A stretch of DNA of 64,000 nucleotides from Psilocybe cubensis (taxonomy: Eukaryota): assembly GCA_017499595.2 (NCBI GenBank), contig CM039006.1, forward strand, positions 2,666,001 through 2,730,000, in the 5' to 3' direction. The notes under the pieces are model-generated. The model was not told where the DNA came from and searched no databases. It worked only from the letters and a program-made list of their open reading frames with translations. The translations under genes were made by a program, and so were the position numbers. Shown in pieces: positions 25,499-45,635 of the stretch (the stretch's first letter is position 1; the number at the start of each line of letters is the position of its first letter).

Positions 25499-27628
25499 GG
25501 TGGGAGGTTGAGTAAAAGAAGATGAGAAAGATGATGCGGGTTGAACACGGTGTTTAGCACACTCACGTGATTGCTGCCCTGGCTCCTTGCGCGACTGCTG
25601 CTTCCCTTTACCACTTGTCAACACAATCCATGCCCTTGCCAACCAGTCAATGAAATCCTTTTACTTCATTTTCCTAGGAGTTATCCTTATGGTGTTTTCA
25701 TGTAGTGGATGCACTGCTCCACCGTTCAAGAATTTGCAAGCCTTAACTGTTCATCGAAGGAATTGCAAAGGAGTGGCCAAAAACTCGCAACAAATTATAG
25801 AAAACTCGGCAAAAGCATTATCCCAAAGGAATAAGCGTCAACGCCTCTCTAATGCTTTAGAAAATGTTCCTGGACCTTCGGTATATTTTATTTGTGACCA
25901 TTTCTTTCCAAAATAAAACTTACACATTCTGTACAGCACGATTCAGAGCCTGAGGCTCCCATTAACATTGATATCACTGGAGAGCCAAATGTACATGATG
26001 CTCCGGACCATCCGGTTATTTCTGCACCAGCATTTGTTCTACCACCTACTCGGAGTGGCTGTGAACGGAAGTTCCCAAAGCAATATGCCGACATGCTACC
26101 GAACTCTTCTACATATTTACCACATCTCCCTCCGGCTCCACCACGGCTACCAAAGGAGCCCTCGAAACGAGCTGAAAAGCTTAGAGCAGCTTCTAGTACC
26201 CCTCCACCAGATCCTAAAGACATGTATCTGCGTAGCGAAATCAATGATTTTGGACTATATCGTGTTTATCCCTCGTTTCCCACCTGCGAAGTCAACGAAT
26301 CTGATGATCTTGACAACTTATGTGATGCACCAGGTCTGGCCACAGCAAGCGGCAAATCAAAAACACGATGGTGGAAGTCATTTGGCATCAATTCCGTGGA
26401 TACAACTTCTCAGAATGTTAGTCTTTTCACGCCATTTATGAACGCCACAATATTTCGTCTGGTCAACTGGTTTTATTCTGGGTCAAACCTCAAGTCGGCT
26501 GGTGAATTGGACCGTCTGGTTAAAGATGTACTCCTGGCCGATGACTTCGACAAAAACCACCTCAAAAACTTTAGTGCCAAACGAGAGTTTAGTCGCCTCG
26601 ATGAAACTGACGCTCAATTCCCTATTTCTTCGAGCAATACCTGGAAAACATCAACTGTCAAGCTCTCTTTACCTGCCGAAAATGTCCCACATTGTGCTGA
26701 ATCAGAGGCTCCTGTTCTGGAGGTTCCAAATGTACACCATCGAAGTCTTGTAGAGGTTATAAAGTCTGCCTTGGAAGACGAGTCGACAAACAATTTTCAT
26801 TATACTCCCTTTTGTCTTTTTTGGCAACCAACCAAGGAAAGCACTCCTGAACGAGTCGTTTCAGAGCTATACAACTCGGAGGCATTCTACGAAGAGCATG
26901 TGCGACTACAGCAGCAACCTCGAGAGCCTGGATGTACTCTAGAGGTTGCCATTGCCGGGCTGATGCTGTGGTCAGACTCGACACACCTTGCACAGTTTGG
27001 AAATGCCTCATTGTGGCCCATTTATCTCTTTTTTGGAAATCAATCGCAATATTTTCGTGCCAAACCCAAAAACTTTGCCGCCCATCATGTCGCCTACATT
27101 CCCTCGGTAAGTAATATATGAACTATGTCAAGATATATTGTTTATCGAGTGTTATAGCTCCCAAATTTCCTGCAGGATATTTATATGAAAGCTTTTAATG
27201 GTCTTGCAGCATCTGCAGCTACAATAACTCACCTCAAGCGTGAGCTCATTCAAGCAATTTGGCTTCTATTGCTCGATCCTGAGTTTATGCACGCGTATGA
27301 ACACGGAATTGTGATCAAATGTAGCGATGGTATAGTTCGGCGGATCTTTCCACGATTTTTTACCTACTCAGCTGACTATCCGGAGAAGTAAGTTCTTCTA
27401 TTCTTGTTAACGTGACAAGATTATTAATTATCTCCAAAAGAATACTTCTCGCGACTATCCGGTACCTTGCAAAATGCCCGTGTCCACGATGCTTGATCCC
27501 AATGTTCCGTATTGGGGATTTGGGAACAAAGGTTGACGACCAGCGACGCCAACACATACGAATTGACACACCATCGCGACAATACACAGTTGAGCAGAGT
27601 CGTAAACACATCTATGAACAAGGGAAGG

Positions 27629-28078
27629 TGTCAGGGTTTCTCCAGTTTTCCCTCTTTATCTTCACAGATTTATCTTATCCTTTCATTATCTTATCAATTA
27701 TCTGATTAGATAGTTTATTTCTTTCATCACAGCCTTCTTGCTCTGCTTCTTTCTAGTAAATTCTATATGATTCTTAGTCTTACTCATCCTTTTTCTATAT
27801 GATGTCACTTTTATTCTTTAACCTTCCTTTATGATATAATGTAGGGAATATTCTAGAATAGCTGTAGAGTATAAATACTGGACTTGTAGGTAGCTGTAGC
27901 TTCAGCTTCAATCTCTTAGGATATCCACTATCATTGGTGTGATCTCTTAGAATCATTGAGTCTCTCTCACTCTCTTATTCTCTCTCTGCTCTCTTACTCT
28001 CCCTCTGCTCTCTTTCTCTCTCTCTTGCTTGATCTTTGTTGGTGGCCTTGTCACACTGATTATAGTGTTGCCCTGACA
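27629..28078 (+). repeat. 5' LTR (450 bp)
   Basis: TGTCAGGG...CCCTGACA termini, TATAAATA at 27870; no difference from 33560-34009 found by eye. Confidence 0.97.
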
Positions 28079-28080
28079 GA

Positions 28081-28091
28081 AGATTGAAGCT
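28081..28091 (+). promoter_or_regulatory. Putative self-priming primer-binding site
   Basis: AGATTGAAGCT is the exact reverse complement of LTR 27904-27914 (AGCTTCAATCT). No tRNA-type TGG PBS is present. Confidence 0.75.
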
Positions 28092-28583
28092 CTCTCAAGA
28101 CAACTCCACCATCTCTCTTTCAACACCACACTCTTCACCTCTTCAACCTCTTCAACATCATCACCTCAACCTTCTTCCTCCACTTCCAACCCACCAACCT
28201 CTTCATCAACCTCTTCACCAATCTTCTTACCAACCTCTACATCTCCTCCAATCTTCAACATCCTCCTCAAGACCTTTCCTCAAGACCTTTCCTCAAGACC
28301 TTTGGCTCATCATCTTTCCTACTCTCTGTTGTGTGCTGTGTGTGAACTTAGTAGATAGGGATACCAACTGTTGGGGCAGACACAGTCCTACTAGTGTTCT
28401 GTTTTTGGTGGTCTAGGAAATATCCAGTAACCCTGTGATCCTAGGTTTAGAGCCCTGAGTGGTGTGACAACTGGGTATCCAGTAGATAGATATTTTTTTT
28501 AGAATACTTAGTATAGTTTCAAGGGCACTTTTAGTAGATAGCTTCTCCCACACACACATCAGAGAGCCTACCTACCCCTACCC

Positions 28584-29681
28584 ATGGACATGGACCCCTC
28601 CCAATTGCCTCCCACCACTCCTTCTGTGGAAGAGCTCATGCATCAGGTCCAGCTCCTTACCCAAGAGTTGAATTTTCTTAGACAGCAGCAGCAGTCATCA
28701 TCCACTCCACCACACCCTCAGCAACCAGTCAGTCAGTCACCATCACCACCACCTGCTGCTCTAGATATTCACTCTTTCCCTACCCCTCATGTTGCCCCTT
28801 CCTGTTCACACTCTGTCATTAAAGTCTCACCTCCAGATCCATTTGATGGTTCTATGGAGAAGGCAGAAAACTTCCTCAGTCAGCTCAAATTATATTTCTA
28901 TGGGAAAGGGATTACAGATGACTTTCAGAAAGTTATTTGTGCTCTATCTCATATGAAAGGAGGTACTGCTGGGAAGTGGGCATATGAGAAGACTAAAGTA
29001 ATAGACAATGCTCAGTCCCAAGAAGGTCTTTGGGCTGACTTTGTTTATGAATTTAGGGAAGTGTTTGCAGATCCAGACCCCTCCAACACAGCTAAGCATA
29101 AAATGCACATGCTCAAGCAAGGCAGGCAGACTGCTGATGAGTATGTTGCTAGCTTCAGGGCTCTGATCTCAGATACTGGGTATAATGATGCTGCTTTGGT
29201 AGACCAATTCAAGGCTGGGCTTAATGAAAATCTCAGGAATGCAGTCTACTATGTTCCTGACATGCCCAAAACCTTGGATGGATGGATTAAATGGAGTACT
29301 AGGCTAGATAGGCAGTGGAGACAGAGTGAGGCCTTTACCAAGTCTCTTTCCTCCTCCTCTTCTTCTCCCTTCCTTAAAGCCCCAACTCCCAAGGCTGTTC
29401 CTAAGCCTACTCCAAATCCTCCAGTCTTTTCCAACAGCAGCTCAAGGACCTTTGGTGCTCAGGCAAAGCAACCAGATGTAGTTCCCATGGAGGTTGACTC
29501 TGGATGGAAGTCAGTTAGGCCAATTGTTTGCTTCAAGTGCAGAAAGCCTGGTCATAAGGCTGTAAACTGCAGGTCATCAGTTAACATCAATGCTATGACC
29601 CATGAAGAACTGGCTGACTACTTTGGGAAATTAATCTTGGAAGGAAAGGAGCAGAAAGATGAGGAAAAGAAAAATTTTTAG
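28584..29681 (+). CDS. gag: Retrotransposon Gag
   Basis: 365 aa; PDPFDG, LKQGRQTADEYVASF, VPMEVD and zinc knuckle CFKCRKPGHKAVNC. Confidence 0.95.
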   Translation: MDMDPSQLPPTTPSVEELMHQVQLLTQELNFLRQQQQSSSTPPHPQQPVSQSPSPPPAALDIHSFPTPHVAPSCSHSVIKVSPPDPFDGSMEKAENFLSQLKLYFYGKGITDDFQKVICALSHMKGGTAGKWAYEKTKVIDNAQSQEGLWADFVYEFREVFADPDPSNTAKHKMHMLKQGRQTADEYVASFRALISDTGYNDAALVDQFKAGLNENLRNAVYYVPDMPKTLDGWIKWSTRLDRQWRQSEAFTKSLSSSSSSPFLKAPTPKAVPKPTPNPPVFSNSSSRTFGAQAKQPDVVPMEVDSGWKSVRPIVCFKCRKPGHKAVNCRSSVNINAMTHEELADYFGKLILEGKEQKDEEKKNF

Positions 29682-32600
29682 AAGCACCATTGGTGAAAGA
29701 CATGTCCCAATGGAATAGATTTAATGTACTAGAAAATGAAATTGACAGATTTGATCCTCAGTCTTCAGATTCTGGTGCAGAAATCATGTCTACTTCTTCC
29801 TCTCTTTCTACCTTCCCTGAAAAGATCTACATCCTCAACCATAATCCTAAAACCTCTACCCATTTGTCTGTCATCTTAAAGACAATGGACACAGAGAAAA
29901 GGTTATCTGTTGATGCTTTGCTTGATTCTGGAGCTACTGGCCTCTTTCTGCATTCTGGTTTTGTGAAGTATCATAATCTCAACACAAGGAAACTTCCTAG
30001 AGCCATTCCAGTCTATAATGTTGATGGTACTCTCAACAAGAGTGGCTCTATCCATGAGGAAGTAGACTTAATTATGGTACACAAGAACCATACAGAAAGG
30101 GCCACCTTTGCTGTTTGTGACTTGGGAGACAAATCTGCTATCATTGGACATACTTGGCTTTGGCACCATAATCCAGATGTTGATTGGAAGACAGGGGATG
30201 TTCAGTTTATTAGATGTCCCTCTGACTGCCAAATGGAAGCCAAAAGAGCCAGAAGAAAGAGGCAGAGAATAGCTGCAGTCAAAAGGAGGAAACTCCCTCA
30301 ATTTGATGAAGAAGGAGATGATTCTATTGAAGATTCTTCTGATTCTGAGATTGAGCCTGAGGACAGAATTTTTATCTCATATCTTCATCCTCAGAAGCAG
30401 TCTATTAATGCTACTTCTACTATGTCTCAAAGATTAGCAGAAGAGTCTCATCAGCAAGCTGATTCCCCTAAGAAAACCTTTGAAGAAACTGTTCCTAAGC
30501 ACTATCATCAATTTAAAGGTGTTTTTTCAAAGGAATCTTTTGATAGGCTACCAGATAGAAAGCCTTGGGATCATGCTATTGAGCTGAAACCTGGTTCTGA
30601 ACCTTACAGATCCAAGATTTATCCTCTTTCTCCTAATGAACAAAAGGAACTTGATGCCTTTTTAGAGGAAAATCTGAAATCTGGCAGGATTAGACCCTCC
30701 AAGTCACCTATGGCCTCCCCTGTATTCTTTGTCAAGAAGAAGGATGGATCTCTTAGGCTTGTCCAGGACTATAGGAAACTAAATGAAATGACCATCAAGA
30801 ACTCCTACCCCCTTCCATTGATTTCTGACATTATCACCAAACTCAGCAAAGCCAAATACTTCACCAAACTTGATGTTAGGTGGGGATTTAACAATGTCAG
30901 AATCAAAAAGGGAGATGAATGGAAAGCAGCCTTTAGAACCAATAGAGGGCTGTTTGAACCATTGGTCATGTTCTTTGGTTTAACCAATAGTCCTGCTACC
31001 TTCCAAACTATGATGAATGATATCTTTATTGAGCTCATTGATGGAAATGTTGTCATTGTCTACATGGATGACATTTTAATTTTCACTGAGACTCTTGATC
31101 ATCATAGAGAGGTAGTCAAGCAAGTTCTGCAAATCCTAGAACAGAACAAACTCTACCTTAAAGCAGAGAAATGTGAATTTGAAAAGGAAAAGATTGAATA
31201 TCTTGGACTAATCATTTCACAAGGCAGGATTGAGATGGATCCTGTCAAGGTAGAGGGAGTTTCTAAATGGCCTGAACCTGAAAATGTCAAGGATGTCCAA
31301 TCATTCTTGGGATTTGTTAATTTTTATAGAAGGTTCATAGAGGATTTTGCAGACATTGCTAAGCCCCTTCATGAATTGACAAAGAAAGGAACAGTCTGGA
31401 GATGGAGTCTTAGACAGCAGGAAGCCTTTGACCAGTTAAAGAAGAAAGTCACTTCTTCACCTGTCTTGATTTTCCCTGATGATAACAAGCCATATAAAGT
31501 TGAAGCAGACAGTTCAGATTATGCTACTGGGGCTGTTTTATCTCAGGAAGGATCAGATGGGAAATGGCATCCTGTAGCCTTTATGTCTAAGAGTCTATCT
31601 GAAGTAGAAAGGAATTATGAGATCCATGACAAAGAGATGCTGGCTATTATCAGAGCACTAGATGAATGGAGACATTATCTTGAAGGAACCCAACATTCCT
31701 TTGAGATTTGGACAGACCACAAAAACTTAGAGTACTTTATGGTTGCCCAAAAGCTCAGCAGAAGGCAAGCCAGATGGTCACTCTTCCTGTCCAGATTTGA
31801 TTTTACTCTTCATCATAGGCCTGGTAAAAGATCTCTTAAGCCAGATGCTTTGTCTAGGAGACCAGATCATAAAAAGGGAGAGAATGATAACCAAAATGTA
31901 GTTCTCCTCAAACCTTCCTACTTTAAAATCCAGGCTCTCAAGCAGGGTCATGCTACCATTACTGGTGCAGAAAATGATCTTCTTAAGAAGATTAGAGAAG
32001 CTAAGGAGATGGATGAAAAGGTGGTCAAGGCAGTTCAGGAGCTCAAGAAATCTTCTACCAAGAAGATTGAAGGACAGGAATGGTCAGAAGAACAAGGCCT
32101 TATTCTCTACAGGGGGAAGGTGTATGTTCCCAAGGACAAAGATCTTAGAAGAAAGATTGTGGAACTGCACCATGATGCCTTCATTGCTGGACATCCAGGG
32201 AAATGGAAGACAATTGAGCTAGTCTCTAGGAATTATTGGTGGCCAGGAATGTCACATTTTATTGCAGCCTATACCAGAGGTTGTGATAGATGCAACAGAA
32301 CCAAAACCTTTCCAGCCAAACCTCTTGGTCTTTTAATTCCTACTGAGATTCCCTCTGATGTCTGGCAATGCATTTCTGTGGACTTTATTATGGGGTTACC
32401 AGAATGTCAAGGGTATAATGCCATTATGGTGGTTGTGGATAGACTTAGTAAAATGATCCACATTATCCCTACTACAGATGAAGTCACTTCTGAAGGGACA
32501 GCCAGACTATACAGAGATTATGTCTGGAAACACCATGGCTTACCCATTAAAATTCTGTGTGATAGAGGTCCACAGTTTGTCTCAAGGTTTATGAAAGAAC

Positions 32601-33559
32601 TCAACTCAATACTTGGTATCCAGACAGCCTCATCTACAGCCTACCATCCCCAAACTGATGGTCAGACTGAAAGGGTTAACCAAGAAATTGAGCAGTATCT
32701 TAGACTCTTCATAAATCATAGACAAGATGATTGGGTTGAATGGTTAGCTCTGGCTGAATTCTCTTATAACAACAGAGTTCAGGCTTCAACTAGGCAGACA
32801 CCATTCATGCTCAATAATGGCAGACATCCCAGAATGGGCACTGAACCCCTTAGAGATAGTAAAATGGACACTGTGGATACCTTTGTGAAAAATATGGAAG
32901 AAGCCAGAAAAGAAGCAGAGTCTGCACTTAGAAAAGCTGCTGATGATATGGCTAAATTCTATAATAGACACAGAGGTACTCCAACTCAGTACAAAGTTGG
33001 GGATTTGGTATGGTTGGATGGCAAGGACCTCAAAACTGATAGGCCCTCCAAGAAATTGGATGATAAAAGATATGGGCCTTACAAAATTACCAAAGTTATT
33101 AGCCCTAATGCCTATGAGCTTAAGCTGCCATCCACCATGAAAATCCATCCAGTGTTCAATGTGGTTAAACTTCTACCTTATCACCCAGATATTGTAGGAA
33201 GAAAGCCACCTTCTAGACCACCTCCAGTCATTCAAGGAGAAAATCCTGAGTGGGAAGTTGAATTTATCAAGGACAGCAGACTTTTTAGAAACAAACTTCA
33301 ATATTTGGTCAAGTGGAAAAACTATCCTAATGAAGAATGCACTTGGGAGCCTGCAGAGCATTTGAAAAATGCTTCTAAGGCTATCAAGGACTTCCATGCC
33401 AAACACCCTTCAGCACCTAGAAGGATTTCTGCTGTGACCTTTGATAGACTTTCTTTCACTCCTATTATTAACTTTACTGAACCTCCTCCCCTTCTTAAAC
33501 CCTCTAAACTAACCCATCCATGTGCACATTGTGGAAAATGTGCCTTAGAGAGGGGGTGA
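29672..33559 (+). CDS. pol: Retrotransposon Pol (protease, RT, RNase H, integrase, chromodomain), in the -1 frame relative to gag
   Basis: LLDSGAT, YPLP, YMDDIL, DSSDYATGAVL, H-H-C-C zinc finger, DDE core (SVDF, DRGPQF, GQTERVNQ), GPY motif, chromodomain (WEVEFI...YLVKWKNYPNEECTWEP). No internal stop over 1289 aa. Confidence 0.96.
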   Translation, partial: KFLEAPLVKDMSQWNRFNVLENEIDRFDPQSSDSGAEIMSTSSSLSTFPEKIYILNHNPKTSTHLSVILKTMDTEKRLSVDALLDSGATGLFLHSGFVKYHNLNTRKLPRAIPVYNVDGTLNKSGSIHEEVDLIMVHKNHTERATFAVCDLGDKSAIIGHTWLWHHNPDVDWKTGDVQFIRCPSDCQMEAKRARRKRQRIAAVKRRKLPQFDEEGDDSIEDSSDSEIEPEDRIFISYLHPQKQSINATSTMSQRLAEESHQQADSPKKTFEETVPKHYHQFKGVFSKESFDRLPDRKPWDHAIELKPGSEPYRSKIYPLSPNEQKELDAFLEENLKSGRIRPSKSPMASPVFFVKKKDGSLRLVQDYRKLNEMTIKNSYPLPLISDIITKLSKAKYFTKLDVRWGFNNVRIKKGDEWKAAFRTNRGLFEPLVMFFGLTNSPATFQTMMNDIFIELIDGNVVIVYMDDILIFTETLDHHREVVKQVLQILEQNKLYLKAEKCEFEKEKIEYLGLIISQGRIEMDPVKVEGVSKWPEPENVKDVQSFLGFVNFYRRFIEDFADIAKPLHELTKKGTVWRWSLRQQEAFDQLKKKVTSSPVLIFPDDNKPYKVEADSSDYATGAVLSQEGSDGKWHPVAFMSKSLSEVERNYEIHDKEMLAIIRALDEWRHYLEGTQHSFEIWTDHKNLEYFMVAQKLSRRQARWSLFLSRFDFTLHHRPGKRSLKPDALSRRPDHKKGENDNQNVVLLKPSYFKIQALKQGHATITGAENDLLKKIREAKEMDEKVVKAVQELKKSSTKKIEGQEWSEEQGLILYRGKVYVPKDKDLRRKIVELHHDAFIAGHPGKWKTIELVSRNYWWPGMSHFIAAYTRGCDRCNRTKTFPAKPLGLLIPTEIPSDVWQCISVDFIMGLPECQGYNAIMVVVDRLSKMIHIIPTTDEVTSEGTARLYRDYVWKHHGLPIKILCDRGPQFVSRFMKELNSILGIQTASSTAYHPQTDGQTERVNQEIEQYLRLFINHRQDDWVEWLALAEFSYNNRVQASTRQTPFMLNNGRHPRMGTEPLRDSKMDTVDTFVKNMEEARKEAESALRKAADDMAKFYNRHRGTPTQYKVGDLVWLDGKDLKTDRPSKKLDDKRYGPYKITKVISPNAYELKLPSTMKIHPVFNVVKLLPYHPDIVGRKPPSRPPPVIQGENPEWEVEFIKDSRLFRNKLQYLVKWKNYPNEECTWEPAEHLKNASKAIKDFHAKHPSAPRRISAVTFDRLSFTPIINFTEPPPLLKPSKLTHPCAHCGKCALERG

Positions 33560-34009
33560 TGTCAGGGTTTCTCCAGTTTTCCCTCTTTATCTTCACAGAT
33601 TTATCTTATCCTTTCATTATCTTATCAATTATCTGATTAGATAGTTTATTTCTTTCATCACAGCCTTCTTGCTCTGCTTCTTTCTAGTAAATTCTATATG
33701 ATTCTTAGTCTTACTCATCCTTTTTCTATATGATGTCACTTTTATTCTTTAACCTTCCTTTATGATATAATGTAGGGAATATTCTAGAATAGCTGTAGAG
33801 TATAAATACTGGACTTGTAGGTAGCTGTAGCTTCAGCTTCAATCTCTTAGGATATCCACTATCATTGGTGTGATCTCTTAGAATCATTGAGTCTCTCTCA
33901 CTCTCTTATTCTCTCTCTGCTCTCTTACTCTCCCTCTGCTCTCTTTCTCTCTCTCTTGCTTGATCTTTGTTGGTGGCCTTGTCACACTGATTATAGTGTT
34001 GCCCTGACA
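33560..34009 (+). repeat. 3' LTR (450 bp)
   Basis: Direct repeat of 27629-28078, followed by TSD GAAGG. Confidence 0.97.
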
Positions 34010-37000
34010 GAAGGGGGTCAAGAGTACCGCAGTAGAAAACCTTTTACAAGGAAATTCCACTACACCAACCCGTGTATGTATTTATTTACCGCCTTATCTA
34101 CAGTGTACAGCCGCTAACAGAACACTTTTAGAATGCATTTTCAACCCGATTGTTTCAATTCGGCTTCAATTACTTCTCGATGTTTGTGCCAGATTTACTA
34201 CATGAATTTGAGCTCGGTGTGTGGAAGGCCGTGTTCTCACATTTAATGCGCATCCTACATGCATATGCCGAGAACAGCATTCAAAAACTCAACGAAAGGT
34301 CTGTTCTATCTGGATAGACTATTAATTCAGTCTAACTAATACAATAACAATCTAGATATCGCCAGGTAGAAACATTCGGGCAAGACACAATCCGAATGTT
34401 TTCAACCAATGCTTCAGCCATGAAGAAACTCGCAGCGCGAGACTTTGAAGACCTGCTACAGGTTTGTTTTGATCTCATTTATTTGGTGTTATGCTCAATT
34501 TGGCATGCTTTGAAGTGCTCAATGCCAGTTTTTGAGGGCTTACTGCCTCGAAAACACGATGAATTTATACAGAATATGCTGTTTACGCTATGTACATGGC
34601 ACGCTTACGCAAAGCTGCGTCTTCAGACGACTTCGACGCTCAATGGGCTCAAATCCACTACAAAAACCCTTGGCAAACTCCTTCGGGGGTTCGCTAAAGA
34701 CATATGTCCACATTATGATACAGTTGAACTTCCCCAAGAAGAAGCCGCACGAGTACGCCGTCGAGCAAATGCTGTCAAGAAAGGCAAGATTCTACCAAAT
34801 TCTCGGCGTAAGACTCGTAACTCTGGGCCCATTGATGAGGATGATTCCACTACCCAGTCAAAGCGCCGAAAAGTCTTTAATTTATTAACATACAAACTCC
34901 ATGCTCTTGGAGACTATGTTGCCTCGATCTGGAGGTATGGACCAACAAGTGGCTACTCGACACAGATTGTAAGTCTTGTTTATTATGATTATTTTGTGAT
35001 TACTGATTCGTTTTTTATGGATCAAACCAATTATAGGGAGAGCTTGAACACCGAAGAGTCAAGCGCTTCTATGCCAAAACAAACAAAGGACGCACCTTTG
35101 AACGGCAAATTACAAGACATCAATGTCGAGAACGCCTTCTTCGTACAATTTCTGAACGTGAAAAAAGATCCAAAAAGACCTCAACGGATATATTACAACA
35201 GGCGCCTTCAAACTACTCTACATCAAATGTTTCCAATGCTCCACACGTTCCATTCATTGAATCAGATGCACTTCCACCTACTCTACCTCAGCTGCACCAT
35301 CATATTAGTGCCGACAAGCGCCTCAAAGATAATGTCCACCGCTGGCTTTACACAAATGAGGGTGATCCTGCTCTCAAGGTAAATTGTGTTGCTTGCCACC
35401 TCCTTTCTTGCCCTCTACAATTATTTAATCTTACGTTTAGAACTTTATACGCGACCTCAAGAATCACCTTTTATCTCGCCTTCTAGGGCATACCGCCGAC
35501 AGTGACGATTATCTGTATTACTCTGATGAAGACCGCTACAATGTGCAAATTGTCAACAACCTCATGTTCCGACACAAGCTGCTCAGAATCAATTACACCA
35601 CGTACGATGTGAGGCGCCAACAAGACACAATCAATGCTCGAACTCACGCCGATATTATGACACTATCGGGGAACACGGCTGACAATGCTCATCCATATGC
35701 CTATGGTCGAGTATTAGGTATTTTTCACGTTGATGTTCAGCATCGTGGACCTCTTTCAACATCAAACCAAACTCATCGGATGAACTTTCTTTGGGTAAGA
35801 TGGTTTGAACTTGATCCAAACTACGTTGGAGGCTGGAAGACTAAGCGACTTCATCGGGTTCGCTTTATCAATTCCTCTTCATCTCTAGCCTTTGGGTTTC
35901 TAGATCCTGCAGATGTCATACGTGCATCTCATCTGATACCAGCTTTTGCACACGGGCCTACTGAGGAATATCTAGGTCCATCTATTGCCCGGCCTGTTCT
36001 CAAAAACCGAGTCAATCTGCTGAATCAAGATTGGCGATTCATGTATATTAATATGTAAGTCGTTCTCCAAGCTACTACTAATCGTAGTGTCTTATTGACT
36101 CCGGTGTAACGGGCAGGTTTGTTGACCGCGATATGTTTGTGAGATACCTTGGTGGCGGAGTCGGTCACTATACAACAAATGAATACACCATAAACCTCCG
36201 GCCTGACGATCACGATGTTCGGAATGTGTTTGTGGTACCTCACCATGGTGTAGACGATACAGGAGTTCATCTAGAAGACGAGGATGAAAGCATGGACTGG
36301 CTGGATGAAGAAGATACACACCTCCTGAGCAATGATGCCGATGAGCGCCATTTCTCCGAGGCTGACCCCGATGATTTCAACTCTGAAGATGATGACTGGG
36401 GTTATAAATCCCCTACCCACTCGTGCGACGGCTCAGACGATGAGACAGATCATTTGGATGATAGTGAAAGTGATCATGGGGAGGATCTTGGTGGGTCTGC
36501 GGGCACTATGGACGATGATGGTGTTGGTGGTGGTATGATTTATGAGCCCAACATTGGTGCGGAGGATGGCGAAGAGCCGTGGGAGATGGGTGATGAAGAG
36601 GCGGAAGGCTACGGTATTCTATAAGGCGGTTGTAACTGTATATCTACTAGATGCTAAATTGAATTTGTATTCCTCCCACTTCTTGAGTTGGATAGTGTTT
36701 GACCCCGTACAAATGGGTACAGGCCAGTGACAAGCCAGGTCATCTTGGACTTAAAGGCATTGAAGACAAAAATTGATCAACCTTGCATTTGAATGCATTG
36801 AAGTCAGAATTTTTGGGGCTGTTTTACATACAAACCACAAACTTTGCTGTGTGCTTCCAATGCATACCCAGAATTTTTCTATCTTAGATGAGACTCACCA
36901 TTATCATATTGCCAATAAATTCACAAATATAAATTGACGACAGAATGCAATGTCAGGCAGAAAATTATACTTACATTGGTTACTCTCTACCAAAATCTTA

Positions 37001-45104: not shown

Positions 45105-45341
45105 GGCGAAGTGTAAGAGTGGCGTTTGCGCCTGGGTCGCATCGCTAAAAGTTGACAGAGCGTTCCTTCGTTTATAAACCGCCGTCCATAAGAAGAATAC
45201 CCGAAATGAATGTTTTAGCGATGCGACCCAGGCGCAAACGCCTCTCTTACACTTCGCCGACGAGCCATTGGGGTAGGTTACTGGCGTTTGCGCCTGGGTC
45301 GCATCGCTAAAACATTCATTTCGGGTATTCTTCTTATGGAC
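45105..45341. repeat. Overlapping inverted repeats (three copies of GGCGTTTGCGCCTGGGTCGCATCGCTAAAA)
   Basis: 45184-45242 is the perfect reverse complement of 45283-45341 (59 bp). 45105-45150 pairs nearly perfectly with 45213-45258. Confidence 0.9.
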
Positions 45342-45635
45342 TGACATTTTGTTAGACTTTGAGAGTTTAGAGCCTGCAAACGCGACTGAAGCCGGGCAAT
45401 GAGAACTAACATCCGATGCAACCACATTAGCTGCTTTATTAAAGCACCTCCTACTACAAGACATTGCTGATAAAAATTCACCCCAACATAGAGTTTGTCA
45501 ACGAATCTAGAGTAAACAGTGTACATATTCAGGAAAAAATGTCCTTATTAATGCCTGACCTGAATCATGGACAATAAACAGGAATTTAAAACAATGATGT
45601 TAGAATCACTCAATCAGGTGATGACGGAAAAGATA

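Follow-up and report, generated by a model that had tools for sequence, protein, structure and literature searches.

Introduction

Specialists expect self-priming in fungal chromoviruses. The mechanism is proven for Tf1 of Schizosaccharomyces pombe. Tf1 and Tf2 are described as chromoviruses in which the first 11 nt of the mRNA form a self-primer whose complement is the primer-binding site (PBS) (PMC7175516; bioRxiv 2022.12.06.519325), and the ends of Tf1 cDNA are reported to carry copies of the PBS (PMC11042837). Self-priming is presented as the common feature of the Tf1/sushi chromoviruses of fungi, vertebrates and non-seed plants (PMC6317226; bioRxiv 2022.12.06.519325), whose members outside fission yeast typically use a -1 frameshift and carry a CCHC motif according to the latter source.

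Among basidiomycetes, self-priming has already been proposed for Tcn1 of Cryptococcus neoformans (PMC7175516). Most Tcn1-clade elements of mosses and lycophytes are predicted to be self-priming by the same rule as applied here, namely at least 10 bp of PBS complementarity to the 5′ LTR starting 0-5 bp beyond the LTR (PMC6317226). MarY1 and Laccy1/2 are described as basidiomycete-only chromovirus clades (PMC2864245), and marY1 of Tricholoma matsutake has been placed within Tf1/sushi (PMC6317226). The literature searched, in which the founding papers appear as citations, yielded nothing on how agaricomycete clades (MarY1, for example) are primed. Further background is available in parts of PMC3601003 and PMC5341516.

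A young chromovirus family in the window

The window is the whole 64,000-nt stretch of DNA analysed here, and its positions 27629-34009 are occupied by an intact LTR retrotransposon of the Ty3/Gypsy chromovirus type with two identical 450-bp LTRs (Table 1). The element is classified as a chromovirus because pol carries RT, RNase H, integrase, SH3 and chromodomain. The order of RT, RNase H and integrase with a C-terminal chromodomain was found together with TG...CA LTRs, a 5-bp target-site duplication and a polypurine tract. The pol frame matched PF00078, PF17917, PF17921, PF00665, PF24626 and PF00385, and the protease was assigned only from its LLDSGAT motif. The nearest solved RT is that of Ty3 (E 8e-80), and the named pol relatives, sharing 63-68% identity, come from the agaric Lyophyllum shimeji, which points to a probable agaricomycete host.

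Table 1. Features of the window element and of the oligo(T) site in a second clade
Feature	Position	Strand	Basis
5′ target-site duplication GAAGG	27624..27628	+	same 5-mer beyond the 3′ LTR; empty site in one contig of DNA run X3
5′ LTR, 450 bp, TG...CA	27629..28078	+	identical to 33560-34009; X3 contigs have loose ends at 27629 and 28078
TATA box TATAAA	27870..27875	+	-34 from the inferred start
C/A pyrimidine/purine initiator, putative start 27904	27903..27904	+	Y/R in 17/17 tabulated elements
Self-primer, putative 5′-terminal 11 nt of the mRNA	27904..27914	+	exact PBS complement; invariant in 30/30 copies; mean pair probability 0.93
R-U5 stem, 5′ arm, continuing the primer duplex	27915..27943	+	predicted fold; 3 double-sided changes relative to L071
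R-U5 stem, 3′ arm (LTR end)	28050..28079	+	predicted fold
2-nt spacer (GA), LTR end to PBS	28079..28080	+	offset 2 in 22/23 rows with a match of at least 10 nt
PBS, no TGG	28081..28091	+	exact primer complement; invariant in 30/30 copies
gag, Ty3-type capsid and CCHC knuckle	28584..29681	+	ORF; PF19259, PF03732; PF00098 marginally above the cut-off
pol: protease, RT, RNase H, integrase, SH3, chromodomain	29663..33559	+	1298-codon frame
-1 slippery heptamer AAATTTT in the gag-pol overlap	29672..29678	+	sequence and frames; use predicted
Polypurine tract	33547..33556	+	sequence directly before the 3′ LTR
3′ LTR	33560..34009	+	identical to the 5′ LTR
3′ target-site duplication GAAGG	34010..34014	+	matches the 5′ copy
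C-T9-GAA site	L167:1967-1980, L168:1533-1546 (oriented)		G000 C3:140549, C5:487325

The -1 gag-pol frameshift signal and the Gag CCHC motif, which are typical but not universal in Tf1/sushi members other than those of fission yeast, are both present. In contrast, Tf1 is described as having one ORF and no CCHC motif (bioRxiv 2022.12.06.519325). The domain order is shared with Ty3 and with the plant lineages Tekay, Reina, CRM and Galadriel, but these plant elements are primed by tRNAs, mostly tRNA-Met (PMC6317226), whereas the window element has no TGG at its PBS. Likeness to Tcn1, as a basidiomycete chromovirus with a proposed self-primer, and to the MarY1 and Laccy1/2 clades, as basidiomycete chromoviruses set beside the L. 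shimeji relatives of the window pol, is a likeness by description only.

The family is young, high-copy and recently mobile, since 38 of the 96 genome matches to its RT-RNase H region are 98-100% identical across the whole query, 28 of those 38 retain the unbroken 1298-codon frame, and the insertion site is empty in a contig of DNA run X3. This contig joins both flanks without the element (site at window 27628), and the insertion is therefore polymorphic.

Intron-split ORFs on either side of the retrotransposon (window 25898-27121 and 34348-36058) resemble a Plavaka-type transposase gene. PF18759 was matched on the 5′ side, and a Pfam search with the two ORFs of the 3′ flank gave no match. The retrotransposon is probably nested inside this gene, whose family is not restricted to one phylum according to a database listing.

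The PBS is complementary to the element's own LTR

Since the LTR ends at 28078, the PBS begins 2 nt past it. The preliminary description had reported an 11-mer at this place that is exactly complementary to a segment of the LTR, and the lack of a TGG-initiated tRNA PBS behind the 5′ LTR. The sequence bears out both points: 27904-27914 (AGCTTCAATCT) and 28081-28091 (AGATTGAAGCT) are exact reverse complements, and TGG is absent from 28079-28130. The match is exactly 11 nt and can be lengthened only with a bulge, and the PBS 11-mer occurs once on the plus strand of the window. With 11 nt at offset 2, the pair lies within the range given for Tf1/sushi elements, in which 10 nt or more of the PBS pair with the 5′ LTR and the PBS begins 0-5 nt past that LTR (PMC6317226). 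The Tf1 PBS seems to abut the LTR, as PMC11042837 suggests, whereas that of the window element is 2 nt off.

Of 8000 dinucleotide-shuffled LTRs, 21 contained an 11-nt complement to any 11-mer starting 0-5 nt beyond the LTR. The element has 5471 internal 11-mers; complements of 3 of them occur in the LTR, and one of these three is the PBS. Chance complementarity in a pyrimidine-rich LTR thus has a small but non-zero probability for a single element. The primer 11-mer has 176 matches genome-wide. Primer and PBS are invariant in all 30 copies compared, out of 40 matches listed, with variation in 0 of 660 cells against 8.2 expected; as these copies are close kin, their invariance lends weak support.

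Primer and PBS change together across related elements

The preliminary description had suggested looking for compensatory changes in related elements. We compared other Gypsy families of the host genome and, from a set of 80 metagenome loci, the 21 in which a 5′ LTR end is visible; most of the remaining loci are without one. Homology or motif, and not the locus's own 3′ LTR, served to place the LTR end in L063, L071, L080 and the majority of the metagenome loci besides. An exact complement of 10-13 nt was found in the element's own LTR in 23 of the 28 rows with a defined LTR end, window included, and the offset was 2 in 22 of these 23. The exception, L130, has offset 3 because its LTR end is degenerate. 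Four of the five non-matching rows (L095, L108, L120 and L127) are contigs cut before or inside the primer, and the fifth (L115) has a single mismatch. L169 is a further element with a matching PBS and own-LTR complement.

These rows and L169 contain 11 distinct primer types, each of which is fully Watson-Crick paired with its own PBS. Exchanging partners between types gave 0 perfect pairs out of 110, with 49% of positions paired on average, and two or three kinds of base pair occur at 10 of the 11 positions of the primer duplex. Two further primer types, from L171 and L082, came out of a blind scan and bring the total to 13. In all 13 types, primer and PBS match each other exactly. Covariation is clearest in L071, which has 69% RT-RNase H identity to the window element and an alignable LTR. 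Its primer AGTTTCGATCT and PBS AGATCGAAACT differ from the window duplex by two double-sided changes.

The complementarity test is not positive by default, because L167 and L168, more distant chromoviruses of the same genome, gave no complement of at least 6 nt. L170 and L172, whose LTR ends are unplaced, gave no match in the blind scan. In a tree built only from the loci of the present analysis, in which the deep forks are open and reference elements are not included, the primer types are spread over several branches.

These data also bear on chance. The blind scan returned about 13 off-LTR matches in 375 kb, so that isolated matches do arise, but the complementarity recurs at one offset with 13 different sequences. 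This recurrence refutes chance as the explanation, and we regard chance as hardly worth entertaining.

Host tRNAs compared with the PBS

Alternatively, a host tRNA might prime by its mature 3′ end or by an internal fragment, as in half-tRNA-primed Copia elements, with the LTR match being secondary. A comparison of the PBS with host tRNAs had been proposed in the preliminary description. We used 46 distinct nuclear and mitochondrial sequences, taken from 50 of 63 listed loci and the window; this set is partial, as 63 of 1810 candidates were scored. Among these 46 tRNAs, the best 3′-end match to the PBS was 1 nt with CCA and 4 nt without it, and the best internal fragment paired over 7 nt by Watson-Crick rules against a null mean of 7.3. 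Neither mode of tRNA priming produced a match above the null in this set, and tRNA priming was rejected.

Without TGG, the CCA end of a tRNA cannot pair with the PBS. In addition, the PBS differs in 13 ways between families and tracks the LTR each time. On the other side, the tested tRNA set is partial, and in L066 and L169, which belong to a more distant clade, the PBS matches 10 nt of the 3′ end of tRNA-Val(AAC) without CCA. However, in L171 of the same clade primer and PBS change together, so that complementarity to tRNA-Val is lost while pairing with its own LTR persists, and self-priming is favoured in the L066/L169 clade as well. Taken together, priming of the window element by a host tRNA appears very improbable.

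The PBS of L066 (1686-1698) and L169 (1374-1386) matches both 10 nt of the own LTR and the 10 nt that precede CCA in tRNA-Val(AAC). The register is that of a canonical PBS, except that GTT replaces TGG. This double match is possibly a trace of a tRNA origin of a self-primer, or due to chance.

Self-priming also explains why tRNA-based annotation would miss such PBSs. The self-primer of L065 (1539-1549) ends in CCA; its PBS therefore begins with TGG and would be mis-annotated as tRNA-type. The best tRNA 3′ match to this PBS is 5 nt (7 with G-U pairs), versus 11 nt for its own LTR.

Promoter signals in register with the primer

The primer had been described as lying 34 nt downstream of the LTR TATA box, which agrees with TATAAA starting at 27870. 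In Coprinopsis cinerea, the initiator is given as (C/T)(A/G) and the canonical TATA box is most often at -34 (bioRxiv 2024.05.10.593147), and the classic promoter model is summarised as a TATA box at about -30 with a pyrimidine-purine start (PMC7849388). TATAAA at -34 and the C/A dinucleotide are consistent with transcription starting at 27904.

Across the relatives, the primer starts on a Y/R step in 11 of 11 types versus 2.6 expected. In 8 of the 11 types, the interval from -30 to -36 contains a strict TATA motif, versus 0.5 expected; a looser motif, selected after the data had been viewed, raises the latter count to 10 of 11. When individual elements are tabulated, TATA or a TATA-like motif is present between -32 and -35 in 16 of 17. 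The start is not pinned down by folding, because the primer duplex is also predicted with upstream starts from -60 to -3 (probability 0.68-0.94). If transcription starts where these signals suggest, the primer match would locate the U3/R border with single-base precision. No canonical AATAAA-type signal by which the R/U5 border might be placed was found in the LTR.

Two predicted duplexes around the PBS

The Tf1 RNA is described as a 'pretzel' of three duplexes, the third of which, on the leader side, is needed by Tf1. The central primer:PBS duplex is predicted in the window element with a mean pair probability of 0.93 and is backed by covariation. The second duplex, between the sequence 5′ of the PBS and the LTR downstream of the primer, is also predicted by the fold, and the R-U5 stem of L071 carries 3 double-sided changes and one G-U to G-C change in the same register. 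In contrast to the three duplexes of Tf1, only these two are supported here. The third, between the LTR and the leader sequence 3′ of the PBS, is unsupported, since 167 of 200 shuffles paired as well in a crude test on 14 nt; given the crudeness of this test, the window element has either a weak third stem or none. Of nine elements tested, only L143 fell below 5% (2/200), followed by L132 (12/200) and L062 (17/200), and the other six gave 67-194/200. For the 5′ region as a whole, the gain in folding over shuffles is modest (z -1.7). In L119 and L066 other folds are preferred, and the primer duplex has probabilities of 0.20 and 0.05, respectively.

The duplex might be real and selected for another purpose, such as packaging, dimerisation or translation control, or might be an internal hairpin of a transcript starting upstream, with another RNA acting as the primer. 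The start position is a predicted one, the duplex also forms with upstream starts, and the third pretzel duplex is unsupported, all of which leave room for this explanation. However, the 5′ edge of the match falls on the Y/R initiator, with the TATA or TATA-like motif upstream in the 16 of 17 elements mentioned above, its 3′ partner sits exactly at the position required of a PBS, and no other primer site is evident. We therefore judge another function of the duplex improbable, if somewhat less so than priming by a host tRNA.

Two further features of the LTRs were noted. In L061, L062 and L064, the bases after the primer copy the first 4-6 nt of the LTR and pair with the LTR end, which leaves exactly the 2-nt spacer bulged. 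In L071, L080, the L132 group and L065, the 15-22 nt after the primer are directly repeated farther down the LTR (R region), and these repeats are possibly alternative partners for the LTR end before and after cleavage.

A probable Tf1/sushi-type self-priming cycle

The PBS exactly complements the LTR 11-mer, the two keep a fixed register, and they change together across relatives. With covariation spanning 13 primer types, no fit among the 46 tRNAs, and a TATA box and initiator in register, the proposal that the element self-primes is well supported. We assign a probability of about 0.9 to the window element being a Tf1/sushi-type self-priming chromovirus. Self-priming itself is already known for this group, to which the window element adds one member. 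Nothing is overturned by this finding. It would carry the mechanism, so far proven in fission yeast alone, into a mushroom-type genome and a family there that is high-copy and recently mobile.

In the cycle that we infer by analogy with Tf1, Pol II would start at 27904, and the first 11 nt would fold back onto the PBS, stacked on the R-U5 stem, by which the LTR end would be drawn close. RNase H of the element may then cut after nucleotide 11, a step shown for Tf1 only, for which the domain is present here, and RT would extend the new 3′ end into minus-strand strong-stop cDNA. The PBS would later be recopied from the retained primer, so that the two copies are kept complementary. Such recopying would imply that primer-PBS covariation partly reflects templating and not selection, and templated covariation would in turn point to use of the sequence as a primer. 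From the 2-nt spacer, a cDNA overhang of 2 nt is predicted, which integrase would trim.

A broader generalisation is tentative and, in our view, doubtful. Mushroom chromoviruses may use a variant of the Tf1 mechanism with a primer of 10-11 nt, a fixed 2-nt spacer and a two-duplex structure without the leader stem, in which the PBS is recopied each cycle and the pair drifts freely, several young families of this kind residing in one genome together with a sister clade whose PBS is oligo(U). If this were true, one genome with several self-priming families and the oligo(U) sister clade would be a natural setting for priming-mode switches.

A sister clade with an oligo(T) PBS and other repeats

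A second young chromovirus clade, represented by L167 and L168, has C-T9-GAA directly behind the 5′ LTR, where neither a tRNA site nor a self-complement was found at the PBS. There are 8 such sites in the genome versus 0 for the control. The site resembles the T-rich site described for SM-Tcn1 (PMC2864245) and the polypyrimidine site of Dictyostelium Skipper, for which the primer is given as unknown (PMC5006619). Priming by a poly(A) tail is conceivable in this clade, as the LTR end is matched by 3-4 nt directly behind the T run, though the case for it is weak. The oligo(T)-PBS clade is arguably a more open question than the self-priming described above.

Other repeats were noted in passing. 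Several tRNA-like sequences of 72 bp, to which ARAGORN assigns the identity Tyr(ATA), are dispersed at G000 C8:1946856, C9:790193, C12:350510 and similar sites, and may constitute a tRNA-derived repeat. The blind scan also revealed long inverted repeats in the window at about 16076-16580 and 45121-45350, with arms of up to 29-36 nt, and one in L171 (887-1240) with 54-nt arms, which are possibly MITE-like elements.
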